From the NCBI GenBank assembly GCA_024137785.1, contig JAHRHZ010000026.1, positions 33,458,312-33,522,311 on the forward strand: a DNA stretch of 64,000 bases. The letters are read 5' to 3'. The stretch is from Ginglymostoma cirratum (Eukaryota). Of the stretch, positions 1 through 61,585 are shown one piece after another. The notes under the pieces were generated by a model. The model searched no databases. It saw only the letters and a program-made list of their open reading frames with translations, and was not told the DNA's origin. Position 1 is the first letter of the stretch. The number at the start of each line of letters is the position of its first letter. The position numbers were made by a program, and so were the translations under genes.

Positions 1-325
1 CCACCCCCATTTCCTACCTACTAACCTCATCCCGCCACCTTGACCCGTCCGTCCTCCCTGGACTGACTTATCTCCTCCCTACATCTCCACCTACACTCAC
101 CTGTACTGGCTCCATCCCCGCCTCTTTGACTTGTCTGTCTCCTCTCCACCTATCCTCTCCTCTATTCATCTTTTGTCCGCCTCCCCCCTCTCCCTATTTA
201 TTTCAGAACCCCCTTCCCCTCCCCCATTTCCGATGAAGGGTCTCGGCCCGAAACGTCAAGCTTTCCTGCTCCTCTGATGCTGCTTGGCCTGTTGTGTTCA
301 TCCAGCCCCACACCTTGTTATCTTG
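1..325 (+). mobile_element. Penelope-like element (family A) 3' end: C-rich 3' region, hammerhead motif and terminal segment; cut by window start
   Basis: Nearly identical to 42157-42465, whose inverted partner arm follows a GIY-YIG coding tail. Confidence 0.85.
228..260 (+). ncRNA. Minimal hammerhead ribozyme, core mutated (CCGATGA)
   Basis: TT-CCGATGA-A-GGGT CTCG GCCC-GAAA-CG-TC-AA. Confidence 0.6.
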
Positions 326-454
326 GGCTGAATTGCTTGTTTTTGCGCTGTAGCTTTCTATGCAGAGAGAAGGGAGGTGCAAAGGGTAAGCGAGATTAGT
401 TTGTAAGTGTAAGTCTGCCATTCAAGCATCTCTTCAACCATGAAGTTCAGTACC

Positions 455-590
455 ACCTCAACCTGGTTTAATCCTTGAACTCAGGGCAATGTCTATTCTA
501 AAAGACTTCCAACGATGCAACACTCCCTTAATACTGTGTTAAAGTGTAACCCTCAACTTATGCTCCATTCCGAGAGTTTGCACCTTAACC
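455..590 (-). mobile_element. Degenerate Deu-type SINE fragment
   Basis: Reverse complement resembles the cagtactgagggagtgctgca body of the copy at 61655-62100. Confidence 0.45.
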
Positions 591-594
591 CAGC

Positions 595-720
595 GGTTGC
601 TGAAATGAAGACAGAATATGGTTCAAACACTCAGCAGGTCAGGCAGCATCCATGGAGAGAACATACAGTTTACATTTAAAACTGACGGCCTCTCATAATA
701 AATATCAATCTTGAACAGCT
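595..720 (-). mobile_element. Degenerate PLE terminal fragment
   Basis: ctcagcaggtcaggcagcatccatggagaga motif shared with 57437-57630. Confidence 0.55.
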
Positions 721-1460
721 TCCAGTGCTGGTTAAGCACAAAGGGACTAAGGGGAAAGGGTTGGGTTTAGGGCAGGGCTAATGGAGCTGATGATAGTGGT
801 CTCGGGGAGGGGAGAGGCAAGCCAAGGGAGGCTCAATGCAGGTTCTGGGAGGGAACAATGGGTTTGTGCACACAAGATTTTTGCACCTGTGCACATATAC
901 CCAGGGAATTTAAATGACACAGATTTCATATCACGAAAGATACACTGTTTTGTTTCCAGTAGGATATCCTCACCTGATGCAGCAAGGCTTACATTATAAC
1001 ACGTGAAACTGGGCATGAATGAAACAATATTTAGACATCTAACTGACGTTTATTGCAGCTGATATTTTTACATACAAAATATCAACATTCACAAGCACAT
1101 CCAAATTAACCATAAGATATTGATCCATCAGCGTGCCATGCATCAAGTGATTTCAAGTAGGATGGTGTGGGAGACCTTTATACCCTCAAGACACCTCCGA
1201 AGATGCAATGATCAGATCATGAGCATGCCCCTTAAAGGCAAATCGGCAATCTGACTGTGTGAACCACAACAATGAATAACCTATAAGAAAAAAACAAACA
1301 CTCCGACAATCATAAACGAAAGATTACCAAATAGGAACATCACCTTTAAAAGTGACAAATCACAAATAAGGAATTGCTTTGTCAATAAATGTTTGTGCAG
1401 GATATTAGTGTTAATTAATAACCTTGATTTCAACTGTATCAGTTTATTTCCCTCCACCTT

Positions 1461-1745
1461 AAAGAAAAGACTTGTATTTCCATAGCACTTCTCAATCTTG
1501 TGACATCCAAAACAGTTCACAGCCAACGAAATACTTTTTGAAGTTGTCATGCAAGAAAACATGGCAACCTACTAAGCAAGATCCCACAAACAAAAAAATG
1601 GGATAATAACCAGATCATGATTTTAGCAATATTATTTCAGACAAAAATATTGGGCAGGCCATTGGGAAGAACTCTCTGATGTTTCTATTAATTTTAACAC
1701 GTTACCTCTCACATCCAACCAAGAGGAAAAACAGGGCTCCTGCCT
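1461..1745 (-). mobile_element. Deu-type SINE 3' half
   Basis: Reverse complement resembles 61840-62100 (cttcaaaa...cattggctgt...ttgggatgtc). Confidence 0.55.
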
Positions 1746-3059
1746 AACACCAATAGTTATTCATGTGTAGTCATCTGAAAAATCACTACCTGATCCTTCA
1801 GGTTTTCACTTATTTAGCAAAAATTGTGAAGATTTAAGATGAAGGGAAAGAGCAAAAATCACAATGTCGCCACGTTCTACTTGAGAGATATGGAGCAAGG
1901 TAGGATCAGAATTGATCAGGAAGCCTGTCTGTTATCTGACAGTGATTTTAAAATGCTTTTAAAAGGAGTTTTCTGAACAGACATTCAATGAAAGGACAAT
2001 GTCAGAGCTTCAGTTATTTCACCTTCTGTCAATTTATCGTCATCCCAGATGAGATGGACTTTAAAAGTCCTGACATATAAAAGCAGAGCATTACACAAGC
2101 TGCCACTTTTCATTCAATTATTTACAAGTTGATGCACACCACAGTTCTACCTACTTCTAGTTTCACACCCTCTTTACAAAGAAGGCATGCTATCAAGAAA
2201 AGCACTGCACCTTATTAAGGCACAGCAAAAAATAAATGAACATTTAAAAAAAAAATTACTTTAAAAAAAATCAGTAACTCAGTGTTTCATTTTTACATGC
2301 TCAAGAAAGTGAACATTTACTATTTGAACCGTGTCTTTGAATTGCTACAGGGCGAATCAGTTGCAGAGAGCACCAGAGGCAATATCCTGAATACAATTTT
2401 TTGAATGGGTTAACTCCTTCACAAAGGGATCAAACGAGCTTCAAATTAATTGACAGAAAATGGTTTCAAATGTTCAAAGCATTATTCTTGAATATTTGTG
2501 AGTGAAGGCTAAATTTTAGGCTAACATTCAATGCTTCAATTCTTGTTGAAACCATTAGCGGTCATTGGATCAAACCATCCCAGATGCAGGCCATCCACAA
2601 AGTAATTTGGGTGTTCAAATAGAATTGGGTTCTTTCAACTCCAGGACGACGCTGGCACCTGATCACTGTTTTACACTGAATGGGGTGTTTCCGTGTATCA
2701 ATTATTGTGATGTTAGTTTGATTGCTTAAAATGACCTTTTAAAATCTTCTGGATTGCTTTCAATACCTACTTGTTGCTAATTCCACGAGACTTCCAGACA
2801 TTCTGAAGGGATTACAAACTCTGAACTAAAAAAAATTCAATCTCTCCTTAACTTTCATGTTCACAAACGTGTACCTTCCTACCAAATCCAATGGATAGAG
2901 ACCAGGCAGAATTTTCCCTCTTTCATTGTAGGCCACTAGAGCATGTACCTTTACTTGAGACCATCGACCTTTAACAGGACTAAAATTGTGAGTTTACTTG
3001 CCTGTATAACAAAATTATGTTACATTCTTAATCAATGTGGAAATTGGGGAACCTAGATC

Positions 3060-5092: not shown

Positions 5093-6062
5093 CTCCTTCT
5101 CTTTCTGCAGATGCTGCCGGATCTGCTGAGTTTCTCCAGCAATCTCTGTGTTTCTTTCAGTTACACTGTTTGTTGACACTAGAAACTGCTCCATCAATGA
5201 TTCACATGCACACAGTACCCAAATTTCGTCAGAGGATAAGTGGGTGAGCAACAAGTGAAAGGCTAGCATTTCTTCCGGAGACAGGTCACAAAAAAAGGCC
5301 ATTCACTCATGGCAGGTCACAGCTTAGAACTGGAAGAGGCAAGAGTAATGAGGACTGCAGGGAGAGCTTCTAAGGCAAAAAGCAAAGGGAAATTTTTATC
5401 CAATCTGACCAGATTAGGAATCGACACAAGAGCATAGAATGCCTTGCAGAAACTGGTCAACAACACAATGATTTGTCTGGGATGGTTCCCTTTGCTTTAA
5501 TTGGGAGAAATCTGTCCACCTTGTTGTGTTGCCACTTGATCGGGGAATTTTTGGGCATCCCAGTGTCACCTTTACAAACCCATCAGAACAGGCTTAAGCA
5601 AACAGGTTTAAATAGCAGCCTATATTCCAAACTACAATCAAAGCTGCAGCTGAGGTGACTCTAAGTACAAGATGGAAATTTTGATTGCTTCAAAACAAAC
5701 AGAATAAATTGTCAGAAAACCATTAAAGAGAAACATTGAATAGCAAGAACAAGTATGTCCAGAAGCAATATGAAAGTCTAAACACCCACCACCACTTGAT
5801 AATCAAACAGCAAAGTAGAGCACTCAATGATCAAAAAAAACTTGATTTTCATCTCACCATCAAACAAAGGTTAAAATTCATGTGCACAAGCTATTGAAGT
5901 GACAGGCTCAATATCAATGTCTAGCACTTAATTAAAATTGTAATAAACTGAATCTAGATTGGCAATCATCCACATCAGGTGACTGATTGGACAAAAAAAT
6001 CCTAAAATAATATCAAAAGTTTAAAATATATGCTCAATAGAAAATAAGCAACAATATTTTGA

Positions 6063-6160
6063 GATAACAAGGCGTGGGGCTGGATGAACACAGCAGGCCA
6101 AGCAGCATCATAGGAGCAGGAAAGCTTGATGTTTCGGGCCTAGACCCTTCATCAGAAAAT
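6063..6160 (-). mobile_element. Short PLE-derived insert (family A) with hammerhead motif
   Basis: Matches the PLE terminus; TSD caatattttga at 6052-6062 and 6161-6171. Confidence 0.85.
6125..6157 (-). ncRNA. Minimal hammerhead ribozyme
   Basis: TT-CTGATGA-A-GGGT CTAG GCCC-GAAA-CA-TC-AA. Confidence 0.7.
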
Positions 6161-6319
6161 CAATATTTTGAATTTTCTTTGGTTAGTGTTTCTCACCTAC
6201 GCTCATTAGATCAAGAATTCCTTTTCATTCTTGAGTCAGAACTACTATTCACTGCATGTTTCTCATTCCTGTAGAGTCACAGGGTCATAGACCAAGGATA
6301 TAGGGTAGACTGTTCGAGA

Positions 6320-14965: not shown

Positions 14966-15547
14966 TGAAAAGGTTCCAATTGAATAAAAGCATTCTGATC
15001 ATCTTCCATCTCCTGTACTATTCAGTCACATTTGGGCCCTTATCATTCACTAGAGACTAGAGAAAACAAATCAATTGCAAAGGAGACAAATAAAATGCTC
15101 CCACAGTCTTTCTCAAGGCTGAATAAAGGTGGTTAAAAGAGATTAACAACCTACTTTTTTTGTTTGGGGTGTAGTAAGGGAAAGGGGCCACACAGAAAGT
15201 GTACTTGGCACTTCACAATGACTCAATGCCTAACCATTAATAGTATTACTGTGATCCGGCTAATATCACACAGTATACAGGGAAACAAGCGGGTGTCTAG
15301 CTCTCATTGTTGATTGTCAGGTGATCATCAAACTGAAGCGAGGCCGGAGGAATTGGGAGCATCAACTGAATATTTAAAGCACATTAACCCACTGAACAGA
15401 GAAAAACTCCAGATATGAATCAGATTCCTACTATTTGCTCTCACAAATCTGACAATGCTATCCTGCCAGCAGTCTTGGAAAGGAAGAAGTAACTTGCATT
15501 TACACAGCAATTGCCATGTCCTCAAAATCCAACACAGTCCATGGACT

Positions 15548-15729
15548 CAAACAGAAGCAAAATATTGCAAGTGCTGGAAATCTGAAATAAAAGCCAAGTG
15601 CTGGAGAAACTCAGCAGGTCTAGCAGCATCTGTGGAATAAGAAACAAAGTTAATACTTCATATCCAATATTACTTTTCTTTGGAACTGCATTCAGCTCTG
15701 ACAGAGTTGAGTTGGACTCAAAAAGTTAA
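15548..15729. mobile_element. Old PLE-derived short insert
   Basis: ctcagcaggtctagcagcatctgtgg; TSD ccatggact at 15539-15547 and 15730-15738. Confidence 0.75.
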
Positions 15730-16017
15730 CCATGGACTGCCTTTTGATATACTGACTGTTGTAATGTGGAAAATGGGCCAGCCAATTGGCACTAAGTGGG
15801 CATAGAGGCAACAACGACATAAACGACTGAATAATCAGATTTTATTTTGAGAGGAAAGTGTTGGCTAGGGCAGGAGCTTGGGACCTTGATTGGAACCAGT
15901 TGAAAGCCAGCACTCCTGACAATGTGGCACTCCCTCAGCATTCCATTGTTAGACTGGAGAGATCAATTCTTGTCCTCAGCTTGGTAGCATACTGATTCTG
16001 AGGAGACAGCATAACTA

Positions 16018-16231
16018 CAAACAAAAACTGAAGTTGCTGGAAAAACTCAGCAGGTCTAGCAGCATCTGTGTAGAGAAACCAGAGTTAACATTTCGGGTCC
16101 AACGACCCTTCCTCAGAACTGGGCCCAAAACATTAACTCTGACTTCTCTTCACAGATGTTGCTGAGCTTTTCCAGCTACTCCTGTTTTAGTTTCTGATTT
16201 ACAGCATCCACAGTTCTTTCGGTTTTTATTT
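16018..16231. mobile_element. Palindromic PLE-derived insert (family B)
   Basis: Inverted arms meeting at ~16120; TSD agcataacta/agcgtaacta at 16008-16017 and 16232-16241. Confidence 0.85.
16083..16120 (-). ncRNA. Minimal hammerhead ribozyme (family B)
   Basis: AGTT-CTGAGGA-A-GGGTC GTTG GACCC-GAAA-TG-TT-AACT. Confidence 0.7.
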
Positions 16232-17384: not shown

Positions 17385-19277
17385 CCATTATATCTCCCCT
17401 CTGCTGCCTCCAAGCTCTTAGTATCACAACCCTGCACAGCCCACTTCTACCTCCTTCCCAAAATCTACAAACACGACTGCCCAGGCAGATCCATTGTTTC
17501 TGCCTGCTCCTGCCCACATAGAACTCATCTCTTCCTACCCTCGAGTCAGTTTTTTTCTCCCCTTGACCAGTCCCTGCCCACTTACGTTCGCAATTTCTCT
17601 GATGTTTTCGTCAGTTTCAGAATTTCCAGTTTGCGGGCTCCAGCCGCCTCCTCTTTAGCGTGGATGTGCAATCCCTTTACACGTGCATCCCCCACCAGGA
17701 TGCTCTCAGGGCTCCCTGCTTCTTCCTGGAAAAAAGGCCTGAATCATCCCCGCTCACCACCAGCCTCTTGTGCTTGGCTGAGCTTGTCCTCACCCTTAAC
17801 CACTTTTCTTTTAACTCCTCTCACTTTTGTTAGGTCAAAGGGGTGGCCATGGGTACCTGCCCAGGCCCCAGTTATCCCTGTCTCTTTGTGGGGTACGTGG
17901 AACACTCCTTGTTCCAATCCTATTCCGGCCTCCTCCCACAACTCTTTCTTCGGTATATCGATGACATCCCTTATGCTGCTTCCCTCTCTGGAACTGGAAA
18001 AGTTTTTCAATTTTGCTTCCAATTTCTATCCTGCCCTCACTTTCACCTGGTTCATCTCTGATTCCTCCCTTCCCTTCCTCGACATCTCTGTTTCCATTTT
18101 TGGGGATAGGCTGGCCACCAATATCCACTACAAACCAACTAACTCCCACAGTTATCTTGGCTATATATCTTCACACCTTACTTCCTAGCAAAGGAAATTT
18201 CATTCTCCCAGTTCCTCCAACTCCATCACATCTGTTCTGATGATACCAACTTCAACAAGCAGACCTCTGAAATGTCCACCTTCTTCCTCAACCAAGGATT
18301 TCCTAGCATAGTCGTTGACAGGGCCCTCAGCCGAGTCCAGCCCATGTCCCGCACTTCAACCCTCACCCTCCTCTCTTTCCTCTCATAACAGTGATAGGGC
18401 CCCCCTTGTCTTCACTTACTATCTCACCAGCATCCAAATCCGGAGGATCACTAGCTACCATTTCCGCCACCTGCAGAGTGATGCCACGATCAGACGCATA
18501 TTCCTCTCCCCTCCCTTGTCAGCCTTCCACAAGGGCTGTTCCCTCCAGGACATCTGGACAACTCCTCCTTCACTCCCAGCAACCCACCTCAGTGGTACAG
18601 CACCTAACCCTACAACCGCAGAAAGTGTAACTCCTGCCAATTTACTTCCTCCGTCTTCAATATCCTTCCAGGTGAAGCAGTACTTCCCAGAATCTAGTCT
18701 ACTGCATTCACTGCTTACAATGTGGTCTCCCCTACATTGGGGAAACAAAGCGTCGACTGGGTGACCGCTTCGCAGAACATCCACGTTCTGTCCACAAAAA
18801 AATACCCTGAGCTACCAGTTGCCTGCCACTTCAACACACCACCCCGTTCCCTGGCCAACATCTCCGTCTCAGGGTTGGTGCAGTGCCCCAGCGAAGCTCA
18901 GTGCAAGCTGGAAGAACAACGCTTCATTTTCCACTTGGGAACTCTACAGTCTTTGGGACTCAATATTGAGTTCAATAATTTTAGGGCTTGAGGCACCTTC
19001 TCCTATGTCCTTATCCCAAACCCCATACACCAGCTCTTGTTATCACATGGTCTGCTACTACACATTACCCATTGTTAGCCACTAACAGTCCCCATTAGTA
19101 GTTATTCATTCTCCTAGTCTGACCATTATTCACTTTTTTGTCTGTCCAACTGCTCTTCTCTTTTGCATAAAAGCTACCATCAGTTCTGAGGAAGGGTGAC
19201 TGGACCCAACACATTAACGCTGATTTCTCTCCACAGGTGCTGCTGGACCTGCTGAGTTTTACAGCAATTTTGTTTTG
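17385..19277 (+). mobile_element. Penelope-like retroelement (Neptune-like, family B): decayed RT, GIY-YIG endonuclease and 3' hammerhead remnant
   Basis: FYLLPKIYK, MDVQSLYT, AMGT..GPSY.CLFVG, RYIDDI, LPFLDI, HYKPT; LVYCIHC..CG..YIGETK; HFNTP...LGTLQSLGLN; CTGAGGA motif at 19186. Confidence 0.92.
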
Positions 19278-20774: not shown

Positions 20775-21085
20775 TAAAATTTGGAAGCAGGCCATTCGGC
20801 CCATCAAGTCCACACTGATCCTCCAAAGAGCATCCCACTCAGATCCTATCACTGTAACCCTGCTTTTCCCATGGGACATCCCTGGAAGCTATGGGTAATT
20901 TAGCATGGCCAATCCACCTAACCTGCTCATCTTTGGACTGTGGGAGGAAACTGGAGCACCCATAGGGAACCCACAGAGACACAGGAAGAATGCGCAAACT
21001 CCACACAGACAGTGGCCCGAGGTTGGAATCAAACCTGGGTCCCTGGCGCTGTGAGGCAGCAGTGCTAACCACTGAGCCATCATGC
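20775..21085 (-). mobile_element. HE1-type tRNA-derived V-SINE
   Basis: Minus strand tggctcagtggttagcactgctgcctcacagcgccagggacccaggtttgattcc (A/B boxes); ctcccacagtccaaagatg core. Confidence 0.9.
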
Positions 21086-23474: not shown

Positions 23475-23690
23475 CATAGAGTCATACAGCATGGAAACAG
23501 ACCCTTCAGTCCAACTCGGTTCATGCTAGCCAAGTTTCCCAAATTAACCTAGCCCCATTTGCCTGCATTTGGCTCATATCCCTCTAAACCCTTCCTATTT
23601 GTGTACCTGTCCGAATGTCTTTTAAGTGTTGTAACTGTACCTGTATATACCACTTCCTCTGGCAGCTCATTCACATTCGAACCACCCTGT
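23475..23690 (-). mobile_element. CR1 LINE 3' fragment
   Basis: catagagtcatacagcatggaaacagaccc tail; reverse complement of 4330-4765 type. Confidence 0.8.
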
Positions 23691-23773: not shown

Positions 23774-24323
23774 TAACAAGCATGGGGCTGGATGAACACA
23801 GCAGGTCAAGCAGCATCATAGGAGCAGGAAAACTTGACGTTTCGGGCCTAGACCCTTCATCAGAAATCAAGTTTTCCTGCTCCTATGATGCTGCTTGACC
23901 TGCTGTGTTNNNNNNNNNNNNNNNNNNNNNNNNNNNNNNNNNNNNNNNNNNNNNNNNNNNNNNNNNNNNNNNNNNNNNNNNNNNNNNNNNNNNNNNNNNN
24001 NNNNNNNNNNNNNNNNNNNNNNNNNNNNNNNNNNNNNNNNNNNNNNNNNNNNNNNNNNNNNNNNNNNNNNNNNNNNNNNNNNNNNNNNNNNNNNNNNNNN
24101 NNNNNNNNNNNNNNNNNNNNNNNNNNNNNNNNNNNNNNNNNNNNNNNNNNNNNNNNNNNNNNNNNNNNNNNNNNNNNNNNNNNNNNNNNNNNNNNNNNNN
24201 NNNNNNNNNNNNNNNNNNNNNNNNNNNNNNNNNNNNNNNNNNNNNNNNNNNNNNNNNNNNNNNNNNNNNNNNNNNNNNNNNNNNNNNNNNNNNNNNNNNN
24301 NNNNNNNNNACCTTTTATCTCTG
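23774..24323. mobile_element. Palindromic PLE-derived insert (family A) spanning a 400-N gap
   Basis: Inverted arms meet at ~23866; 13-bp TSD aaactatctgtgc at 23761-23773 and 24324-24336. Confidence 0.85.
23833..23866 (-). ncRNA. Minimal hammerhead ribozyme, intact core
   Basis: TT-CTGATGA-A-GGGT CTAG GCCC-GAAA-CG-TC-AA. Confidence 0.78.
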
Positions 24324-25271: not shown

Positions 25272-25397
25272 ACAAATGAAAACTGAAAGAACTGTGGATG
25301 CCGGAAATCAAGAAGAAAAACAGAAATTGCTGGAAAAGCTCAACAGGCTCGGCAGCATCTGTGGACAGAAATCAGAGTTAATGTTTCGGCTCAGAAC
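25272..25397 (-). mobile_element. Short PLE-derived insert (family B), hammerhead stem II deleted
   Basis: Homologous to 16018-16120 and 43456-43560. Confidence 0.75.
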
Positions 25398-27621: not shown

Positions 27622-28709
27622 CTTTGGACTCCTGACATATTGGGCCTGGATGCATTCGAACTGTGCTGAATATCAGGGTTTGCAGGATTGTTGGTGGAGG
27701 GTTTAAACTAGCCTGGCAGCAGACTGGAACCCAAGCCTTGGTCCAGAAGGGAGAAATGCAATGCTGGAAAAGTAAGGCAGAAAATCGGTAACTGAGTATA
27801 GAAGGCAGAGAAAGAAAAGCAAGAAAATTACAGCAACAGAATTGTCCAGTTATATCTGGTATGTACTGGAACCTAACAAACAAGATAAATGAACACAAGG
27901 CAGGTGTAGTATGGTATAATGGGTATTAATGAGATACAGCTTAAATCAGGGCAGGAAAGCAAACCTACCAACAAGGTTTTCAGTTGGGACAGAGGGTGTT
28001 TCAAAAAATGAGGGTCACAGAAGTTCATTAAATAAATAATTACAACTAAGAGGAGGGATGATACGTTAGAAGGATTATTAAATGAAGCAGTGTGGATTCA
28101 AGTGTGAGGAGCCAGAAAAATGTAATGACATTGCCAGGAATATGTCATAGGAGTGCAAAGTGTCAGAATGAAGTAGACAAACTAATGTATAGACAAATGC
28201 TGAGAAGCACAGAACAATGATGCAATAATAGGAGGGCATTTCAACTACCCTGATATTAACTGGGGTCAATTCAGTTGCGAAAAGATATAGAGGATACAGA
28301 ATTCTTAAAATGCATTCAAAAACATTAGCAAGTCTAACAAGAAAATAAACAGTTCTGCACTTAATTTTAGGAAATCCAACTGAGTAAATGGAAAACAAGT
28401 CAGAAGATCCAGGTCGAGTTCCGCTTCAGTACTCAACAGACAAAGAAGGCAGAGTAAATATCACAGATAAACAGACTGAGTATCAACATGTACATCCTTC
28501 TATCATATACCGAAGCATGTCCTAAAAGTGACAGAGATTTAGCAATGAAATGAAAAGAAATTGGGGCCTCTGTATATTCATGATCTTAAGGTTACAACAT
28601 CAACATGAAAGTAATCCAACTCCATAGAATGCCAAAACAAACAAAAATTGAAATTATTGGACAAACCCAAGTGATTCAGAACATTTCCAAAGAAGGTTAA
28701 CTGGTCTCA

Positions 28710-29290
28710 GAGTCATATAGAATGGAAACAGACCCTTCGGTTTAACTAGTCAATGCCAACCTAAACTAGTCCCACCTGCCTGCACTTGGTCCATATCTCT
28801 CCAAACCTTTCCTATTCACGTACTCATCCAAATGCCTTTTAAACATTGTAACCGCACCTGCATCCATCATTTCCTTTGGAAGTTCATTCCACCCATGAAC
28901 CACTTTCTGTATGAAAAAGTTGCCCCTCATGTCTTTTTTAAAATCTTTCTCCTCTTGCCTTAAAAATATGTCCCCTTGTTTCAAAATCACCCATCCTAGG
29001 GAAAAGATACCTGCAATTCACCGTATTCATACCCCTCACGATTTTATAAACCTCAATAAGGTCACTCCTCAATCTCCTACACTCCAGCGAAGGAAGTCCC
29101 AACCTTTCCAGTCTCTCCCCATAACTCAAACTCTCCATTCCCGGCAACATCCTGGCAAATCTCTTCTGAACCCTCTCCAGCTTATTAATATCCTTCCTAT
29201 AATGGGGCAACCAGAACTGGCCACAGTGCTCCAAAGGGCCTCACCAAACAACCTGAATATAACATCCTAACTCCTTTACTCAAAGGTTTG
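28710..29290 (-). mobile_element. CR1 LINE 3' fragment inserted inside an older PLE-derived palindrome (28640-28705 / 29295-29425)
   Basis: ORFs EHCGQFWLPHYRKDINKLERVQKRF and MRGNFFIQKVVHGWN. Confidence 0.9.
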
Positions 29291-29711
29291 AGTCATAAAA
29301 TTCATCCAGAACTCAATATGTGAACTACGCTTTCTTTCTACAAATGCTTCCAGTCCTGCTGAGTTTCTCCATCAATTTGTTTTTACTTTTTTTCAGATCT
29401 TACTATCCACAGTTCACTGTTTTATTGTCCATAAGGTGCCAATTGGCACAGTTTACTGTGTGGCCAATGTGGAGCAAATTGGTGCCAACCACACTGGGTT
29501 TGATCCTCCTTGTGATGGAGATCATAATACTGTTAGTGAGAGCTGCAGTCAGGACAGAACTGAACAAGAAAAAGAGAAGATAGAAGAGATAACAATGGGA
29601 CAGCATGTTGGTGATCATAATTCAGTTCAAGTTAGGGTACGGAAGTGTTATGGGAAAGGAGACCAAAAATAAAAATTTTAAACTGGGAAAGGGCCAGTTA
29701 TATTAAGCTGA

Positions 29712-36922: not shown

Positions 36923-37018
36923 AGATAACAAGGTGTGGGGCTGGATGAACACTTCAGGCCAAGCAGCATCATAGGAGCAGGAAAACTTGACGTTTCGGGC
37001 CTAGACCCTTCATGAGAA
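36923..37018 (-). mobile_element. Short PLE-derived insert (family A), hammerhead core mutated (CTCATGA)
   Basis: Near identical to 6063-6160. Confidence 0.85.
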
Positions 37019-40840: not shown

Positions 40841-41473
40841 CACAACGATTTCATTGAAAACTGTTGTCATATAAGCATCAGGCGCTTTTATCTTCCCTGT
40901 TCTACATATTTAACTGTAAAATCTTCCCTTTGTACTGCACCAGAACATCAGCTTAGATTCTGCACTCAGGAATAGAATTTGAGGCCACATCTTTGAACAG
41001 AATGCTGAAAGCTAACATTACTACTCACCCAGCCAATACACTAAAGTTTACTGCTTGGAGGTGGAACATGTGCGATGAAGTGGGTGTTCTCTTAACTTGC
41101 ATTTTAAAGCATCGTTCACAAGAAGACAGCATAAAAGGCTCCACACGGTAATCAGTGGAGTGCAGAGGGATTGGATAAACAGTCAGAGAGATGTCACCTT
41201 TTGGAGAAGATTTTATAGAGCTGCCCATCTTTCAGGTGGGCAGCAAATATCCCACAGCAGCTTTGCAAAGAGCAAGGATTAACTTTTGGTGACCTTGTCA
41301 AAGTTTAGTCAATCAAGCAACATCACTAAAACAGATCAGCCAATCATTAATGAAGTACAATTTGGCCATGTTTCCCAGGGAGCAGTGAATACCGTTCAAA
41401 AATAATATAAAATGTTTTGGATCATCTTGAACAGTGCTAACTAAACACAAATCTTTTCCTAGGAGCAGGAAAG

Positions 41474-41507
41474 CTTGACGTTTCGGGCCTAGATCCTTCA
41501 TCAGAAA
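41474..41507 (-). ncRNA. Minimal hammerhead ribozyme
   Basis: TT-CTGATGA-A-GGAT CTAG GCCC-GAAA-CG-TC-AA (one stem II mismatch). Confidence 0.7.
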
Positions 41508-42366
41508 TGGGGGAGGGGAAGAGGGTTCTGAAATAAATAGGGAGAGAGGGAGAGGCGGATAGAGGATGGATAGAGGAGAGGATAGGTGGAGAGGAGACAG
41601 ACAAGTCAAAGAGGTGGGGATGGAGCCAGTAAAGGTGAGTGTAGGTGGGGAGGTAGGGAGGAGATAGGTCAGTCCAGGGAGGACGGACAGGTCAAGGGGG
41701 CGGGATGAGGTTAGTAGGTCGGAAATGGGGGTGCGGCTTGAGGTGGGAGGAGGGGATAGGTGAGAGGAAGGACAGGTTAGGGAGGCGGGGACGAGCTGGG
41801 CTGGTTTTGGGATGCGGTAGGGGGAGGGGAGATTTTGAAGCTTGTGAAATCCACATTGATACCATTGGGCTGCAGGGTTCCCAGGCTGAATATGATTTGC
41901 TGTTCCTGCAGCCTTCGGGTGGCATCGTTGTGGCACTGCAGGAGGCCCAGGATGGACATGTCGTCTGAGGAATGGGTGGGGGAGTTGAAATGGTTCACAA
42001 CTGGGAGGTGCAGTTGTTTATTGCGAAACGAGCGCAGGTGGATTTCACAAGCTTTAAAATCTCCCCTCCCCCTACCGCATCCCAAAACCAGCGCGGCTCG
42101 TCCCCGCCTCCCTAACCTGTTCTTCCTCTCACCTATCCCCTCCTCCCACCTCAAGCCCCACCCCAATTTCCTACCTACTAACCTCATCCCGCCCCCTGGA
42201 CTGACCTATCTCCTCCCTACCTCCCCACCTACACTCACCTTTACTGGCTCCATCCGCGCCTTTTTGACTTGTCTATCTCCTCTCCACCTATCTTCTCCTC
42301 TATCCATCTTTTATCCGCCTCCCCCTCTCTCCCTATTTATTTCAGAACCCCCCTTCCCCTCCCCCA

Positions 42367-42400
42367 TTTCTGATGAAGGGTCTAGGCCCAAAACGTCAAG
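42367..42400 (+). ncRNA. Minimal hammerhead ribozyme, GAAA mutated to AAAA
   Basis: TT-CTGATGA-A-GGGT CTAG GCCC-AAAA-CG-TC-AA. Confidence 0.6.
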
Positions 42401-42709
42401 CTTTCCTGCTCCTATGATGCTGCTTGGCCTGCTGTGTTCATCCAACTCCACACCTTGTTATCTCGGATTCTCCAGCATCTGCAGTTCCTATTATCTCTGA
42501 TACAAATCTTTTCTTTCTTTCGGGACTTGGGAAAAAAAGGCATGATAACCCCATATTTCTGGGTGTGATTTATGATTAGCCATGAAGTCCGAGAGAACTT
42601 GCAGGTTCCTATTTTGCCTGCGAGATTAGAGGTCTGACTAAATTGGGTGGGCAAAATAATTCGTAAATCCCACTTTTAGACTTTTAGAATTTACAAATTC
42701 ACCAAGGGT

Positions 42710-43010: not shown

Positions 43011-43455
43011 CTATAGAAGGAGTCTTCATACCCACATAATGTTAAAATGCAGACTGATCACATCCAGAACTCAAGCTTCTGATGCCCTGGACTGAACAAA
43101 TGTGATTCCGGGCTTTTTTCAAAGGCTTGTAAATTGCAGAGAGATGACAGACTGATGTATTTGATGATTTAACAGAGACATCAGCTGCCATATGCTCAAG
43201 CCTGAGAATGTAGAAGAATGGTCTGTGTCAGAGAGAGATGTACCTGCTTTAAAATTGCGTAAATAGAAGTGAATAGAGGCCAAAACCAACTACGGTCAGG
43301 CCATAGCCGCTCTTAGATACAGTCAGGCCAGAAACTACCCAGCAAGACATCCAAATAATACCCTAAACTGGAATCAAATCACAAAATCCGGCTTAAGGAG
43401 TGAGATGTCACCAACCTCACAACAGGTATTTTTATCCTGACTGAAGGGAATCTTA

Positions 43456-43674
43456 AATAAAAACCGAAAGAACTGCGGATGCTGTAAACCATAAACAAAA
43501 ACAGAAGTTGCTGGAAAAGCTCAGCAGGTCTGGCAGCATCTGTGAAGACAAATCAGAGTTAACCAGTTCTGAGGAAGGGTCACTCAACCCAAAACATTAA
43601 CTCTAATTTCTCTCCACAGATGCTGCTAGACCTGCTCTGCTTTTCCAGCAATTTCTGTTTTTGTTTCTATTAAA
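43456..43674. mobile_element. Palindromic PLE-derived insert (family B) with degenerate hammerhead at 43565-43602
   Basis: Inverted arms; possible TSD aatctta at 43449-43455 and 43675-43681. Confidence 0.82.
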
Positions 43675-45753: not shown

Positions 45754-45961
45754 GATAATAAAAACCGAGGGAACTGTAGATGCTGTAAATCAGGAAGAAA
45801 AACAGAAGTTGCTGGAAAAGCTCAGCAGGTCTGGCAGCATCTGTGAAGCAAAAATCAGTGTTAATGTTTCAGGTCACCGGACACGAAACATTAACACTGA
45901 TTTTTGCTTCACAGATGCTGCCAGACCTGCTGAGCTTTTCCAACAACTTCTGTTTTTGTTC
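45754..45961. mobile_element. Palindromic PLE-derived insert (family B)
   Basis: Near-perfect ~85-bp inverted arms; TSD aagagtatatc/aagagtacatc at 45743-45753 and 45962-45972. Confidence 0.85.
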
Positions 45962-46439
45962 AAGAGTACATCCTTGATGTCTGGCAGGCCTTAATAAAAC
46001 CCACTGAAAACAGACATGAAAACCATTCGGGAACTGGGAAGCATAGACCAGGAAGGCTCCTGATTTAATTATCAACCTGTACATATTAAGACTGATAGTT
46101 GCAGTAGCTCAATTCAGCTCAGTGCCTCCAGATTTTTGTGGGAAGAAAGAGCCAAACAGCCTCCTGCCACCTGCTCTTGCATCAATAATCGCGAGAGGTA
46201 CCAGAGGGCAGTTAGTGCCCCTGGAATGGTATCTCAGGAAGGAGTCAATATTTTGGGAGGGAGGAAATAGCTGAAGTACGGAACTGATAAACTGCAGCTG
46301 GGAATAACAGACTAGGAAGGCCTTGCATTCCTCCTTGGATCAGTGTCAGGTTCTTTAATCTCAAGCAGGGTAGCAACGGCAGAAGTGATACAACTGGACT
46401 CAGCAGCAGGGAGTCACCAATCAGACGTTTTTCTCTTGT

Positions 46440-48564: not shown

Positions 48565-49525
48565 ACGAACAGGAGTAGGCCCATTGAGACTGCCCCACCA
48601 TTTGGTACAATTATGGCTTCACTTCCATGCTTTTTAGTCACCCAAACCCATAACCATGTACACCATTAGCGACAGAAAGCCGTCATTTCCTACCTTAAAC
48701 GTACTCAAAAACTGAACTTCCGTAGCCCTCTGATAGAGAATTCCAAATGTTCACAACCCCCTGAGTAAAAAAAATACTCCTCATCTCAAACCACAGTGAT
48801 CTCTTCCTTGTTATTAAGTTGTATCCCCTGGCTCTCGACTCCCCAATCAGGGGAACCATTATATCTACATCTACCCTATCTATGCCCTTTTAGTACTTTG
48901 TACATTTCAGTGAAATCACCTACCATTCTTCAAAAGCCTAGAGAATACAGAACCAGAAATTACTGGAGAAGCTCAGCAGGTCTGGCAGCATCTGTAGAGA
49001 GAAAGCAGAGTCAATGTTTCCAGTCCAGTGGCACTTCTTCACTTTGTGTTCTGAAGAAAGGTCACTGGCCTCAAAACGTTAACTTGCTCTCTCTCCACAG
49101 ATATTGTCAGACCTGCTGAGCTTCTCCAGCAATTTCTGTTTTTGTTTCAGATCTTGAGAATCTGTAGTTCTTCGTTTTATCCCAGAGAACACAGGCCCAG
49201 TTCGCCCAAAGTCTCTTCATAGAATTGTTATGCCATCTCAAAAAGAAGTCTGGTCAACCTTCCTCTACTATATTTCCTGAAATAAGGAGATCAAAATTGT
49301 ACAAATTACTCAAGGTACAGTCTAATCAAGTTCCTATACAATTGAAGCAGGACCGCTATATACAAATCCTCTTGTAATAAAAGCTGACATTCTACTAGCC
49401 TTCCTAATAGTTTGCTGCCATTTCTGTGTTGTCCTTAGGTGACTTATCAACAAGGACACCTATGTCCCTTTGTACATCTGCATTTTCCAACCTTTCAACA
49501 TTTCAGAAATACACTGCACATCTGT
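48565..49525 (-). mobile_element. Old CR1 LINE 3' part (continues at ~51240-51330, 51570-51860, 52790-53180)
   Basis: aggagtaggcc tail; minus-strand VANVTPLFKKG..GNYRPISL at 52861-53097. Confidence 0.7.
48951..49180. mobile_element. Palindromic PLE-derived insert nested in the old CR1
   Basis: Inverted arms; CTGAAGA motif at 49051; TSD cctagagaatacag/cccagagaacacag. Confidence 0.78.
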
Positions 49526-51329: not shown

Positions 51330-51570
51330 TGTCACAGAGTCATACACCATGGAAACAGACCCTTCATCCCAACTCATCCAGGTTGACCAGATACCTCAGT
51401 TTGACCTAGTCCTGTTTGCCCACACTTGGCCCATATCCCTCTCAACCCTTCTTATTCATATACCCATCCAGATACCTTTTAAATGTTGTAATTATACCCA
51501 CCTCCACCACCTTCTCTGGCAGCTCATTCCATACACGCACCACCCTTTGCATGAAAATGTTACTCCCAAA
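51330..51570 (-). mobile_element. CR1 3' fragment
   Basis: agagtcatacaccatggaaacagaccc tail. Confidence 0.78.
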
Positions 51571-51864
51571 TCCTCAAGTTCAATTTACATCTTCCTCATA
51601 ACACACATTCCAGCTTAGCTTTGTATCATCATGCAAATTTTGCAATACCACATTTGGTTCTCATGTCTAAATGATTGCTCTATATTGTGAATAGCCGGGG
51701 ACCCAAGCACAAATCTTTACCATACCCCGCCCGTCACTGCCTACCAATGCAAGATTGATCCATTGATCACTTTCTTGATTCCGTCTGTTAGCCAACCTTA
51801 AATCCAGACCAGTACATTACTTCCTATCTCATGTTCGCTATTCTTTCTAATCAGCATCCTAGGA

Positions 51865-52790
51865 CATAGAACAGTTCAGCACAAGAACAGGCCCTTTGGT
51901 CCACAATGTCTGCGATGACCATGATGCTATCCTAAACTAATCCCACCTACCTTCACATGGTCTGTATCTCTCTATTCTCTGCCTGTTCATGTGTCTGTCT
52001 AAATGCCTCTTAAATGTTGCTACCGGATCTGCTTCTACTACCTACTCTTGCAGCGTATTCCAGGTAGTGTACCCAGCACCGTCAATGTAAAGAACTTTCT
52101 TCGTACATGTGCTTTAAACTTTTCCTCTCTTACATTAAACCATGCCCCCTAGTATTTGACATTTCCACCCTGAGAAAGAGATTCTGACTATCCATCCTAT
52201 CCATGCCTTATAACTTTTTGTACTTCTATCAAGTTGCCCCTCAACCTCTAGCAAAAACAATCCAAGTTTGTCAAACCTCTCCTTATGGCTAATATACTCC
52301 AATCCAGGAAACATCCTGGTAAACCTCTTTTGCATCGTCTCCAAAGCCTCCACTTCCTTCCTACATTGTGGCAATCAGAACTGTGCATAGTACCTCAAAT
52401 GTGGCTTGACCAAAGTCTTATACAGTTACAATGTGACTTGTTAACTTTTATACCCAATGCCCTGACCGAAGAAGGAAAGCATGCCATACGGCTTTTTTAC
52501 CACCTTATCCACATGTGTTGTCACAATCAGGGAGCTTTGGACCTGTATTCCAAGATCCCTCTACATCAATGTTCCTAAGGGTCCAGCCATTTACAGTATA
52601 CTTTCCTCTTGCATTTGGCCTCGCAAAAACATCACCTCACATTTGTCTGGATTAAACTCCATTTGCCATTTCTCTGCCCAAAGTTCCAGTTGATCTATAT
52701 TCCACCACATCCTTTGATATCTTTCCTCACTATTTACAACTCCACCAATTTTCATGTCATCCGCAAAGTTATTAATCAGTCCTCCTATGG
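51865..52790 (-). mobile_element. CR1 LINE, 5'-truncated
   Basis: NFADDMKIGGVV, WAEKWQMEFNPDKCEV, ETMQKRFTRM. Confidence 0.9.
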
Positions 52791-53204
52791 GGGACTTTAT
52801 CAAAAGCTTTCTGAATATCTAAATATACTATGTACATCTGGTCTACTTTATTAATTTTGCTCATGATATCTTCAAAAGCCTCAAAACAATTTTATCACAC
52901 AATTGCTCACATGCAAATCCAGACTGACCAAGCTCATTAAGACCATTATCAATCAGGAGTCTATTTAACCCATCCTTTAGAATAGATTCTGATATCTTCC
53001 CTACTATTGATGGAAGGCTAATGGGTCTATAGTTCCCTGTTTTCTTTCCCACTCCCTTCTTAAATAATGGTGTGACATTTGCTACCTTCGAAACCACAGA
53101 GATTACTCCAGAATTGATAGAACTTGGAACGTAATCAACAAAACATCAACTATCTCTATAACTACCTCCTTCAACATCTATTTTGTTTCACTGTTTGAAA
53201 ACTC

Positions 53205-53820
53205 CAAGTCATAGAGTCATACAGCACAGAAACAGACCTTTTGGTCCGACCAGATCATGCCGACCATAATCCTAAACTAGTCCCACCTGCCTGCACTTGG
53301 CCCATATTCCTCCAAACATTTCTTACTCATGTTCTCATCTAAATGTCTTTTAAACTTTGTAATTGTACCTGCATCGACCACTTCCTCATTCCACACATGA
53401 ACCACTCTCTGTGTAAAAAAAACTGCCCCTCATGTCTTTTTTAAATCTTTCTCCTTTCACCTTAAAAATATACCCCCTAGTCTTGAAATCCCCCACCCTA
53501 AGGAAAAGTCACCTGCCATTCACCTTATCTATCCCCTCATGATTTTATGAACTTCTACAAGGTCACCCCTCAACCTCCACACTCCAGAGAAAAGAGCCCC
53601 ACCCTATCCAGCCTCTCCTCATAACTCAAATCCTCCATTCCCAGCAATATCCTGGCAAATCTCTTCTGAACCCTCTCCATCTTAATGATATCCTTTCTAC
53701 AACAGGGCAACCACAACTGGACACACTGCTCCACAAGTGGTCTCACCAATGTTTTGTACAACCTCAACATAACGTCCCAGCTCCTATACTCAAAGGTCTG
53801 AGCAATTTGCAAGCACGCTA
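53205..53820 (-). mobile_element. CR1 LINE, 5'-truncated
   Basis: YKTLVRPLVEQCVQLW...ERVQKRF; tail agtcatagagtcat. Confidence 0.9.
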
Positions 53821-57436: not shown

Positions 57437-57630
57437 GGGAGCAAATTACTGCAGATGCTGGAATCTGTACTGAAAACAAAAAGTGAAGATCACAGCAGGT
57501 CAGGCAGCATCCATGGAGGGAAAGCAAGCTAATATTTTGAGACTAGATGACACTCTATTTAGACTAGAAAGGTTAGCTTGCTTTCTCTCCATGGATGTTG
57601 CCTGACCCGCTAAGCATTTTTTGTATTCAG
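57437..57630. mobile_element. Palindromic PLE-derived insert (divergent family)
   Basis: Inverted arms; TSD aaatgaatga/aaataaatga at 57427-57436 and 57631-57640. Confidence 0.75.
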
Positions 57631-57649
57631 AAATAAATGACTTCTTATC

Positions 57650-57970: not shown

Positions 57971-58361
57971 CCACACAGACACACATGGTATAATGATGGG
58001 TAATCAGACAGGGAGGTTTTAAACAAGAAATCAAGAGATACAGGGGGAAAGTACTGTTTTGCCTCATTATCACTTGAAGCCTTCTTGTTAATAGAACTAA
58101 AGTTGAATCTTGGAAGTCAGTCATGACTTGTTAAGGGAAACTTAGAATGGAAAAGTAAATGCAGGGATGGAGTAGATTGTGCAAAGATTGTTTGGGTTCA
58201 GACGGGAGTCGCTGACCTAATTAAAAATTAAGCTTGCAATCAACAAAATATAGTCTATTGTATCTCTGCAACAATATATTTAGTCCAAGGACAGTGATAG
58301 TATTTTTTTTTGAGACTATTAGGATCACCTCATCTTAGATCTTACGTCCTTGATCTACCTC

Positions 58362-58398
58362 AGCTCTGAGGAAGGGTCACTGGACCCGAAATGTTAAA
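58362..58398 (+). ncRNA. Minimal hammerhead ribozyme (family B)
   Basis: CTGAGGA-A-GGGTC ACTG GACCC-GAAA-TG-TT. Confidence 0.68.
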
Positions 58399-58490
58399 TC
58401 TGCTTTCTCTCCACAGATGCTGCCAAACCTGCTAAGTTTTTCCAGGAATTTCTTTTCTTCTTTCTGATTTCCAGCATCTGCAGTTTTTTT
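58362..58490 (+). mobile_element. Short PLE-derived insert (family B)
   Basis: Starts just before the CTGAGGA core; homologous to 19181-19277. Confidence 0.82.
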
Positions 58491-59629
58491 CTTTTTTTTC
58501 TACCTCCTTTAATTTCTTTAGTTATTCTCCCCACCAGTTCTGCCACATTGTCTGCCATAGGTACACCCATTGTGACAATCAATATTGACTCTTTCAGACC
58601 CATATATATACCTCTCCCCAAGTTTTCTTTTAAACTGTAACTATCAATGCTAAATATTTGTGTATATAATTTCATTTAGCATTATCATATCTTCCTCACC
58701 AGATCTCTGACTTTACATGTTCAGACACTCTCAAGATTTCACTATTCTGTCTAAATGTTTGATCTTCAGATTTGGAAGGACAATAGTTTGCTGGATAGAC
58801 ATTCTTCCTGATGGTCTGAGGTTCTCTCTGAACTAGAGAGCCCTTAATCTCTTGGATTTCATTAGCCAAGGATGTCATCCTTACTAGGCACTCAATTTTT
58901 ATCTTTGTGGTATCCTGAATCTTTAAACATTGAATATCTCTTCTTATTAGTGTCTTCCATGAAGTTGTACACACCAGATCTTCAACCTATGTCAGTGTAT
59001 TTTTGGTTTTAATCCATCTCTGGTATAGTCAATAGTGTTACTACTTCAATTTGATCTCCAGACTGGACTTGCCCATTCACCCTCAATAATCGAGCTCCTG
59101 GAGAAACTAACTCCATTCCCTCAACTCCATTAGTTGTAGATTCATTCTTGCTTGATGTGATCTCCATTGTTGTTAGTGGAGATTACCCTGAGGAAAACAG
59201 GGAGGGCAGATAATCTGCTTCAACTCATCTCTCCTTAGTAATCTCAGCACGTTGGCTCAGAATTGAATGTATGCCCAGTGAGCTCAATTATCTCAGTAAA
59301 GGTTGTACTGTTCACCGGCAGTCTCTTTACCTGTGTTTCCTTGCAACTCTTGTTGGCTTGCGAATCTGAAGACTGTACTGATAGAAGTGCAGAACATTTC
59401 CACCAAACTAATATAATCACAGCCTTCCATTTCACTGATGGTACGATACAAATTTCTTATTTTAACACAATTAACCTCCATGAATCGAGTCTTAGTTTAG
59501 GGTCCACCATATGTTTATAAAGTTCTATAAAATCTTCTACCAATTATTCCTCGATGTCTTATCTCCTCCACATTTTGAATATGATTGAGAAAAGTACATA
59601 GCTTTCTACCCAGGAGAGGGAATTCCTCA

Positions 59630-59810
59630 ATGATTTGATTTGATTTATTGTCATTACACGTACCTAAGTACAGTGAAAAGTTTTGTTTTGCCTGCAGTAC
59701 AGGTGGATTATAACATACAAGGACATACAGGGTGCTTGAACAAAGCGAGGCACACAAAGTTACGGCTGCACAGGAGGCATACCAAAGCAAGATCAACAAC
59801 AATGTGAAGA
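59630..59810 (-). mobile_element. Rex1/Babar 3' tail nested in the Gypsy relic
   Basis: Reverse complement of ttttcactgtactt.ggtac..gt.a..acaataaatcaaatcaaatca. Confidence 0.65.
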
Positions 59811-60399
59811 ACATATAGATTTTCTAGTACTTGGCATTCCGTATGTTACTGAGCTGCTGTAGCATATCTTAAGTGCTCTGCCTTCTGGGCCATGCAGTTG
59901 TATTTCTGTCAGCTCTACACAGTGTTTTCCCAACGAAAACTCACCATCTGATAATATTGTGACACTTGTTCCAGCGCCTAATTAGAAATTTGTGAGGTGT
60001 CCATTGAAGTATATACCTATTTACCAAGATAATAGGTCTGGGTCACCTATTCTTCCTGTGAAAACCTGGAGTTTGCCTTCTATTGTAGATTGTTCTACTT
60101 CATTAATTACGTCATATGGCAGTTCTTTATTCTTTTGCTTTTCTATGGACTTGTTTTAGCACATTTTTAAAAGTGATCTATTGTCTTACAATAAAAACAT
60201 TTGGTTCCAAATCTTGGTGCTGTTGATGCCTGTGAGGTTTATTTGTTTCACAGTATGGGGAAGGGCTTTCAGAGGCTGGTGTCTGTTCTATTGGCTTATC
60301 ATGTGTGGCTTTTGTGGTCTGTGTCTTAAGAGTCGAATGGATTTTGATGATCTCCTCTACGAAGCTTGATCTTCTTTTCTCAGGATTCATCTGTGTTGT

Positions 60400-60742
60400 T
60401 TCATAGAATCCCTACAGTGCGGAAAGAGACCATTCGGTCCACTGAATTTTCACTGACCCTCCCAAGAGCATCACACTCAGACCCAGCACCCTATCCCAGT
60501 AACCCTGCATTTCCCATGGCTAACCCACCCAGCCCGCACGTCCCTGGACACTATGGGCAATGTCGCACGGCCAATCCACCCGACCTGCACATCTTTGGAC
60601 TGTGGGAGGAAACCGGAGCACCCGGGGGAAACCCACACAGACTCGGGGAGAACGTGCAAACTTCAGACAGACAGTTGCTCAAGGGTGGAATCGAAGCTGG
60701 ATCCCTGGCGCTGTGAGGCAGCAATGCTAACCGTGCTGCCCG
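60400..60742 (-). mobile_element. HE1-type SINE nested in Gypsy gag
   Basis: Full head, core and tail. Confidence 0.9.
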
Positions 60743-61471
60743 TACCGTTGCTTCACTCACCATCTGAATTTCTGTCTTAAAAGTCAGGTCTTCTTTGGAC
60801 TGAAATAAATCTGGCAAAGATTTATCAATAATACTCACAACAACTGAATCTGTAATGAATTGTGACTTTAAGTTACCATGGCCACATCTCTCCTTGAGTC
60901 TGTAAGGCCATTAATGATACCTACGGATTCCCCTGAATGTTGAACTCCTACTTGTTTTAAGGTTGCAATAATTGTCAAAGGCTTTCAGTACATCTTCAAA
61001 TATATCTGTCGTTTCATTGTCCCCCTTGGTGAATTATATCCTCATCTGCTTTATTCCCATTTGTCTACAGATTATTTACTTGTTCAGCCTACGGATCATG
61101 AACAGCAATAAACCATTCAGATACGTGAGCCTATTCTGCCAGTCAATTAGACTATGAATTTTAACTCACTCAATCACTTTGTATGGCGATTTACCTTGAT
61201 TCTGTAACCCTTATAGTCCTTGAGACACTGAAAGTCTTGTTTCCACTATAGCCTCAAACACTCTAGTTTCTGGTCTTCATTGAGATGGGCACCTGCAGAT
61301 GCCAATCCAACATGGGACATATGCAGAGGGGGTGAGGTTAATTCACTCTACCTTTTCCAGCAAATTCATGCTAAAAATCTACTCTGCTTCCGTTTCCCCA
61401 CATCTCATCATAAACGACACAGCAGGGATCACAACGTGAAATCACAAAAGAGACAACTATTCAAGGTGTCC

Positions 61472-61585
61472 GAGATAAAAGGTACTGCAGATGCTGGAGA
61501 ATCCGAGATAACAAGCATGGGGCTGCAGCATCATAGGAGCAGGAAAACTTGACGTTTCGGGCCTAAACCCTTCATCAGAAATGAA
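61472..61585 (-). mobile_element. Short PLE-derived insert (family A)
   Basis: 14-bp TSD tattcaaggtgtcc at 61458-61471 and 61586-61599. Confidence 0.9.
61548..61581 (-). ncRNA. Minimal hammerhead ribozyme, intact core
   Basis: TT-CTGATGA-A-GGGT TTAG GCCC-GAAA-CG-TC-AA. Confidence 0.78.

Follow-up and report, generated by a model that had tools for sequence, protein, structure and literature searches.

Short hammerhead-bearing inserts in the Ginglymostoma cirratum genome as stubs of Penelope-like elements

A 64,000-nt stretch of the Ginglymostoma cirratum genome (assembly GCA_024137785.1, contig JAHRHZ010000026.1, positions 33,458,312 to 33,522,311 of the forward strand; hereafter the window, part of a 4.36-Gb assembly) contains numerous short inserts that derive from the Penelope-like element (PLE) hammerhead ribozyme region. 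A sequence-only reading of the window had listed about 15 such inserts and proposed that they may be a self-propagating, non-autonomous ribozyme retroelement family, similar to retrozymes or to short interspersed elements (SINEs), rather than random truncation debris. The analysis reported here does not support a self-propagating family and indicates that the inserts are stubs of ordinary PLEs.

Inserts in the window and their hammerheads

The 15 places noted earlier were read directly and compared by self-BLAST. Positions within an element are numbered from the first C of the CUGANGA hammerhead core (coordinate zero), with the predicted cut after +27. Every entry of the earlier list exists, in that hammerhead-region PLE sequence is present at 15 of 15 places, but three entries (1-325, 19181, and 41459) are the 3' ends of long copies. 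The 12 tiny inserts comprise seven head-to-head pairs (15548, 16018, 23774, 43456, 45754, 48951, and 57437) and five single arms, and none of the 15 is arranged in tandem. Nor do the inserts belong to one family, as had been supposed; at least three families of different age are represented, including the young family A, with copies about 80-98% alike, and the older families B, C, and D, which have different stem II sequences. The inserts are as follows, where TSD denotes a target-site duplication, RT reverse transcriptase, and UTR an untranslated region.

2..323, plus strand: family A long copy, -229 to +93, truncated at the window edge; core mutated
6063..6162, minus strand: family A single stub spanning -3 to about +93 plus 5 additional 5' bases; stem III shows CpG decay; TSD
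15548..15729: head-to-head pair of the old family D, each core decayed; 9-bp TSD (15539-15547 and 15730-15738)
16018..16231: head-to-head pair of family B, with a minus arm from -5 to +97 and a plus arm from +13 to +131
17406..19275, plus strand: long, decayed family B copy (about 1.9 kb) that retains RT (YIDD) and GIY-YIG remnants; 19181 is its hammerhead end
23774..23909: head-to-head pair of family A; the minus arm (-4 to about +93) contains an intact minimal hammerhead at 23863-23836, and the plus arm begins at +26 and continues into masked N
25274..25395, minus strand: family B single stub from +17, without the CUGANGA half of the core
36923..37018, minus strand: family A single stub covering -2 to about +93, its core mutated
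41459..42498: long head-to-head insertion of family A, 1.04 kb in length, with a minus arm from -536 to +43 and a plus arm from -350 to +128; GIY-YIG C-terminus and 3' UTR in each arm; 14-bp TSD
43455..43670: head-to-head pair of family B, with a minus arm from +27 to +131 and a plus arm from -5 to +99; 7-bp TSD
45757..45963: family B head-to-head pair; junction within stem II (+17 and +9); 11-bp TSD
48945..49175: family B-like head-to-head pair; arms from +1 and -1; 11-bp TSD
57438..57632: head-to-head pair of the old family C in which the cores are lost; 11-bp TSD
58361..58500, plus strand: family B single stub covering -5 to about +131; stem III shows CpG decay; 8-bp TSD
61470..61583, minus strand: family A single stub, -5 to +127 with an internal deletion; intact hammerhead (61578-61551); 16-bp TSD

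A script found TSDs of 7-16 bp at nine of 13 testable window intervals (two were untestable), as compared with 48 of 1000 random intervals, for which slightly tighter slack was used. At 15548, the word chosen by the script overlaps the element, and the 9-mer given in the list is the likelier duplication.

The minimal hammerhead consists of CUGANGA, one base, stem II, GAAA, a palindromic pair, UH, and a short stem I of 4 bp that starts at -4. With a strict type I descriptor, an intact motif was found at only two places in the window (23863-23836 and 61578-61551, both on the minus strand); the same search gave 0 matches in 30 Markov-resampled windows and 30 matches in the random genomic sample described below. 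The remaining window copies have a mutated core or stem or lack the core, and most genomic copies are decayed. The earlier reading was right in deriving the inserts from PLEs and in assigning minimal type I hammerheads to them. An Rfam scan of the window returned no hammerhead model at E<=1; two weak Rfam miRNA matches on palindromes were taken as chance. Stems I and II show compensated variation between families, with the older families represented by only 1-2 copies each.

With regard to activity, the predicted fold of family A single stubs is an extended non-catalytic hairpin of unremarkable energy (z -0.3 to -1.4). In the available text of PMC4209133, published minimal hammerhead monomers are reported not to cleave and dimers to cleave weakly, and for the PLE of the anole, PMC11167929 reports, in the part available, that the hammerhead needs protein and that the motif is dispensable for insertion. 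Self-cleavage of the stubs in vivo is unlikely.

Several further features of the window were observed. Decayed fragments of older families that were absent from the earlier list lie at 605-677, 5100-5158, 28637-28669, and 29318-29393. Family B tails (e.g., 58401-58470) contain two pyrimidine tracts that end in CAG and resemble splice acceptors. Abundant interspersed repeats unrelated to the PLE stubs are found at 23544-23672, 28761-29233, 51401-53733, 20876-21070, and 60403-60732, among others. Elsewhere in the genome, a family A head-to-head insertion is nested within a family B element (L058:1724-3591; L-numbers are labels of individual genomic loci), which indicates that B is older than A.

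The parent element and the ends of its copies

A search with the long arm identified copies that are 96-97% alike and reach into an open reading frame (ORF) with YIDD, a C-x4-C-x-x-C linker, and GIY-YIG. The parent unit of about 3.6 kb consists of a hammerhead, a tail, the ORF (RT, CxxC linker, GIY-YIG), a 3' UTR, and a second hammerhead and tail. At one locus, Pfam detected RVT_1 (E 6.5e-7) and GIY-YIG (E 4.7e-5), both above cut-off (L266); the linker was seen in translations of three others (L112, L120, and L125); and a near full-length copy (L264) has a tail, the ORF, a C-rich 3' UTR, a hammerhead, and a tail. The tail at the 5' end passes directly into the N-terminal region of the ORF, as in the anole element. 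This N-terminal region (L264:558-1682) is long, includes a Thr/Ala/Asp-rich repeat of variable length, and gave no Pfam match. The features of endonuclease-positive (EN+) PLEs were found here, namely a single ORF with RT followed by GIY-YIG, a hammerhead terminal repeat, an inverted 5'-truncated copy, and a one-sided tail, which is about 33 nt long and thus within the expected 30-40 bp. According to the available text of PMC8557442, a CX2-5CxxC linker before GIY-YIG marks the Neptune and Nematis clades; judged from this sequence feature, which it would have in common with Nematis, the parent is classed as a Neptune-type PLE.

The ends of copies were examined in a random sample of 132 arbitrarily placed 10-kb stretches, of which 730,519 of 1,320,000 bases were unmasked (45% N). 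The sample yielded 129 family A arms and 73 older arms, which represent 164 insertion events, and family A accounts for 5.1% of the unmasked bases. The earlier estimate of roughly one copy per 4-5 kb is confirmed by this density of one insertion per 4.5 kb, or about a million in the genome by extrapolation, figures that masked centres may inflate, as a masked centre can split one pair into two counts. The 3' ends of family A copies, whether short or long, have a bimodal distribution with peaks at +88..99 and +125..128.

For 5' ends, 104 of the 129 family A arms were readable, with 25 dropped for N or a stretch edge. Forty-seven of the 104 begin within -10..+10, with the main cluster at -6..+6, and the stop rate per nt was 0.028 in this interval, as compared with 0.0043 at -31..-11, 0.0048 at +11..+35, and 0.0012-0.0017 further upstream. 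Older families (B and others) show 42 of 72 5' ends at the boundary, a figure biased upward because three references cover the upstream regions thinly. Genome-wide, 26,231 exact copies of a 25-mer core were found, and only 12,559 of these keep the native 8 upstream bases; the first 30 core loci listed comprised 19 long copies, 8 that lose native sequence within 8 nt, and 3 that are masked. Plain random 5' truncation, with short copies merely the commonest, would be in keeping with the available text of PMC8557442, where truncation is the rule in PLEs, and with the 33 of 104 family A arms that form a long, smooth upstream tail of 5' ends; as an account of the stubs it is nevertheless highly improbable, given that the stop rate changes 6- to 24-fold within 21 nt, a step that recurs in older families, and for the main 5' peak it is refuted. 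The sequence-only reading thus correctly set the inserts apart from random truncation debris, and the smooth distribution of truncation lengths that it had named as evidence to the contrary was not observed.

The same data bear on the idea that stubs are copies of RNA fragments freed by hammerhead self-cleavage. Seven of the 104 family A arms begin at +21..+35, around the predicted cut site, and the plus arm of the 23774 pair begins at +26; the stop rate at +11..+35 is, however, no higher than that at -31..-11, and the main 5' peak retains the whole uncleaved ribozyme. Together with the predicted non-catalytic fold and the published inactivity of monomers (PMC4209133, in the part available), these observations leave such an origin with very little probability.

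Head-to-head pairs in the random sample numbered 23, with no tail-to-tail pair. Junction positions are distinct in 22 of the 23, a tail is present on exactly one arm in 19 of 20 pairs with clean ends, TSDs were found in 14 of 20, and the arms of one pair are more alike (94.3% identity) than arms of different pairs (90.6%). These distinct junctions, closer within-pair arms, TSDs, and one-arm tails indicate that pairs are made anew at each insertion. Short runs of simple repeats (GAA, A/T, GATT) occur at some pair junctions (L062:4848-5091, L044:6623-6780, L073:881-1112, and L154), which suggests telomerase-like repeat addition by the PLE reverse transcriptase.

Origin of the stubs

A tree of 39 short and 28 long copies was used to compare the two classes. 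Short and long labels change 21 times on the tree, as compared with a shuffled mean of 21.7, and a single clade of short copies was rejected (approximately unbiased test, p-AU 1.75e-11). Every scored diagnostic variant is present in both classes, two sets of identical rows span both, and the stubs keep both 3' ends of the parent. Short copies are thus interleaved with long PLEs, an outcome that the sequence-only reading had named as one that would refute it, and the diagnostic SNPs private to short copies that it had looked to were not found. With the two classes interleaved and 22 different junctions among 23 pairs, the stubs do not form an independent family; a lineage with private variants and a common 5' end or junction, as expected of a SINE or another independent family, was not seen. 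The stubs begin with PLE sequence rather than a tRNA-, 5S-, or 7SL-derived head, and no tRNA was found in the window. Two other classes were considered and rejected. Miniature inverted-repeat transposable elements would have fixed terminal inverted repeats and a common interior, whereas the outer arm ends are unequal here and junctions differ, and the tandem arrangement of non-LTR retrozymes, in which consecutive units (two or more) each hold a complete hammerhead, is seen in none of the 15 window inserts.

A self-propagating non-autonomous family, transcribed from its own short copies and mobilised by PLE protein, would account for the defined length, the TSDs, and the abundance of about one copy per 4.5 kb. 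Stubs contain the start sites needed in cis, such that some could be re-copied, and the available texts of PMC8557442 (MRC1) and bioRxiv 10.64898/2026.07.22.740005 describe non-autonomous PLE derivatives. One subfamily is skewed toward short copies (18:4 vs 17:20; Fisher p 0.013, post hoc), and 41 exact copies genome-wide carry the same non-native 5' 8-mer. This 8-mer, common to the 30 top matches, was considered as a private 5' end and rejected as query bias; the class makes up 0.16% of exact cores, mixes several subfamilies, and includes pair junctions, and two of the 30 copies examined enter the ORF. Interleaving, the lack of short-private variants, distinct junctions, and parental 3' ends stand against such a family, as do the absence of long arrays, of a window tRNA, and of a 5'-end pile-up at the cut site. 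The reading is already largely refuted and we regard it as very unlikely, even though a minor subset of stubs may have been re-copied.

Further evidence on the boundary comes from 30 loci that were selected for the 5' part of the ORF. In this set, all 16 copies that reach the hammerhead begin at -8..+8, none with a direct upstream repeat; the boundary is passed by 33 of 80 random-sample copies as compared with 0 of these 16 (binomial p 2e-4). In 20 of the 30 loci, a second unit restarts at -3..-10 directly after the ORF fragment, with junctions that differ; followed in the direction of cDNA synthesis, this would mean that the enzyme arrived at the boundary, switched into the ORF region, and came to the boundary a second time. 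Among 30 G-preceded loci, five have the first 7 bases repeated at the 5' edge, and in the random sample four direct adjacencies were found at three loci among the 129 family A arms. Tandem units of 36, 103, and 133 nt were found at L105, L076, and L319, respectively; edge repeats and tandem units fit re-priming at an RNA end. Taken together, the 16 boundary starts, the restarted units, the edge repeats, and the tandems fit an RNA that ends at the boundary, and we infer that the boundary is the transcription start.

These loci are also of interest in their own right. The direct tandem hammerhead units that start from the 5' boundary (L105:2945-3180, L076:4253-4455, and L319:1797-2080) are candidate starting points for tandem retrozymes. 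Composite inserts in which a 5' ORF fragment lies between two direct hammerheads (L007:1501-1982, L017:1044-1603, and L156-L185) have a hammerhead spacing of about 350-800 nt, with a few up to 2.3 kb, and could cleave as intramolecular dimers.

The stubs are therefore probably products of individual insertions of a Neptune-type PLE, in which reverse transcription starts internally, about 95 or 128 nt into the mRNA, and runs off at its 5' end, about 4 nt before the hammerhead core. On this run-off model, the endonuclease would nick both strands about 10-15 bp apart, giving rise to the TSD, and one or both nicks would prime cDNA at the two internal start sites. The cDNA would reach the 5' end of the RNA after about 100 or 135 nt, where it could be joined to the other target end, to give a single stub; be joined to the cDNA of the other nick, to give a head-to-head pair with a tail on one arm; or jump back onto RNA, to give short repeats, tandem units, or a stub with an ORF fragment. 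Long copies would arise from downstream start sites of read-through RNA, and stub formation would proceed without any need for hammerhead cleavage. More tentatively, it is possible that the default PLE product is a strong-stop-like cDNA of 100-135 nt, primed near the mRNA 5' end, and that jumps back onto the RNA build direct hammerhead repeats in a single step (i.e., the 36-, 103-, and 133-nt tandems and the two-hammerhead units 350-800 nt apart).

The boundary might instead be a place where the reverse transcriptase is strongly stalled at the hammerhead, by RNA structure or bound protein, while copying a longer read-through RNA, with the same parent and the same by-product status for the stubs. 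The 5' strand of stem I does fall at the boundary, stems I and II contain many of the pair junctions, and the anole PLE protein assists hammerhead folding (PMC11167929, in the part available). If 33 of 80 random copies pass the boundary, however, some of the 16 copies in the ORF set should do so, and none does; moreover, the stems are already open when the enzyme arrives at -4, and re-priming repeats stop at the same base. We consider a stall of this kind unlikely. Other causes of the boundary or its junctions were examined and rejected. An intron acceptor does not fit, with no AG before -4 and no common upstream exon. Strand transfer between different RNAs at the hammerhead, on the pattern of LTR elements, finds no support in linkage, which is no lower across the hammerhead (mean r2 0.31) than upstream (0.27; 61 long copies); transfer within a single RNA may still occur. 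An apparent cluster of jumps at +450..459 lies at the query edge, which excluded earlier jumps, and its six junctions differ. G exceeds A at -5 (1,120 vs 718), an excess that would fit a cap-templated base but is indistinguishable from slippage; inverted arms and TSD overlap also explain many loci.

A number of observations weigh against the run-off model and the by-product status of the stubs. The G excess at -5 is explained in many loci by slippage, inverted arms, and TSD overlap; the 5' boundary is a cluster (-6..+6) rather than a single base; and the position of the mRNA 5' end is deduced, the available RNA runs consisting of contigs only and their RNA status being guessed. In four such contig sets, there was no place where many molecules begin, contigs being uninformative for starts, strand, and level. 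In the random sample, a TSD was found for only 9 of the 31 short single arms that could be tested; the tree is based on 96 alignment columns; and the short-skewed subfamily and, despite its mixed composition, the class of 41 copies with a common 8-mer weigh on the same side. Finally, Drosophila Penelope has its start site about 120 nt upstream of helix I (46 nt and an intron of 75 nt), with an internal, TATA-less promoter, in the available text of PMC2377424 and, for the start site, PMC4209133; the run-off layout is thus not general.

As a weak point in favour of a transcription start, the bases around -4 in families A and B fit the initiator consensus YYANWYY; the ribozyme constrains the same bases, which makes the fit weak. 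The model sharply predicts that the mRNA begins about 4 nt ahead of the hammerhead core. Its value would be mechanistic rather than at the level of a family, as the insertions record the start and stop points of cDNA in the PLE replication cycle.

Comparison with known systems

The architecture of the stubs is already published, and a claim at the level of a family is accordingly ordinary, as inverted arms, one-sided tails, and solo hammerheads have all been described for PLEs. The run-off reading was not found in print; within an incomplete coverage of the literature, there was no account of a fixed 5' boundary or of run-off, and a similarly incomplete coverage gave no match for strong-stop cDNA in PLEs, template jumps at the hammerhead, or an elasmobranch Neptune Penelope.

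In the available text of PMC3846280 and PMC8557442, insertion units of EN+ PLEs are described as having 5' truncation, an adjacent inverted pseudo-long terminal repeat (pLTR), a one-sided tail of 30-40 bp, and a TSD. The present insertions share with these units head-to-head arms, a tail on one arm (19/20), and TSDs of 9-17 bp, and their parent shares the order of RT, CxxC linker, and C-terminal GIY-YIG; they differ in that most are reduced to a hammerhead plus tail with a sharp 5' boundary. The part of PMC3846280 available accounts for palindromes by self-priming on an antisense template, whereas we infer that two primings on sense RNA fit the present data better.

Solo metazoan PLE hammerheads, as described in the accessible text of PMC4209133, are mostly single, in some cases on opposite strands 100-700 bp apart, and number thousands per genome; such solo minimal hammerheads were called probably related to truncated PLEs. 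The motif is the same as here, in that it lacks helix III and has a palindromic 15.2-16.2 pair, a short helix I, and one base between positions 9 and 10.1. Sharks do not appear in that text, nor does an account of a fixed 5' boundary; the present genome has 26,231 exact copies of a single 25-mer. If strong-stop-like cDNA is the default product, it would explain the mass of solo minimal hammerheads in animal genomes.

For the Poseidon PLE of Anolis carolinensis, the available text of PMC11167929 reports that, in vitro, two internal RT start sites downstream of the hammerhead define the tail, that both DNA strands are cut and extended, and that ribozyme cleavage is not required. The bimodal 3' ends found here resemble these two start sites. 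Poseidon belongs to a different clade from the Neptune-type parent, and an mRNA 5' end, run-off stubs, and jumps are not described for it in that text.

Non-LTR retrozymes, according to the available text of PMC7229834 and bioRxiv 10.64898/2026.07.22.740005, consist of tandemly repeated units, each with a hammerhead, give rise to circular RNA, and have been proposed to derive from PLE repeats. The inserts resemble them in the type I hammerhead, the lack of coding capacity, and the relation to PLE pLTRs; they differ in being dispersed monomers or inverted pairs with TSDs and parental 3' ends. The jump products suggest concretely how tandem retrozymes could be seeded from PLEs, and jumps back onto RNA, if they occur as proposed, would explain the birth of non-LTR retrozymes from PLEs.

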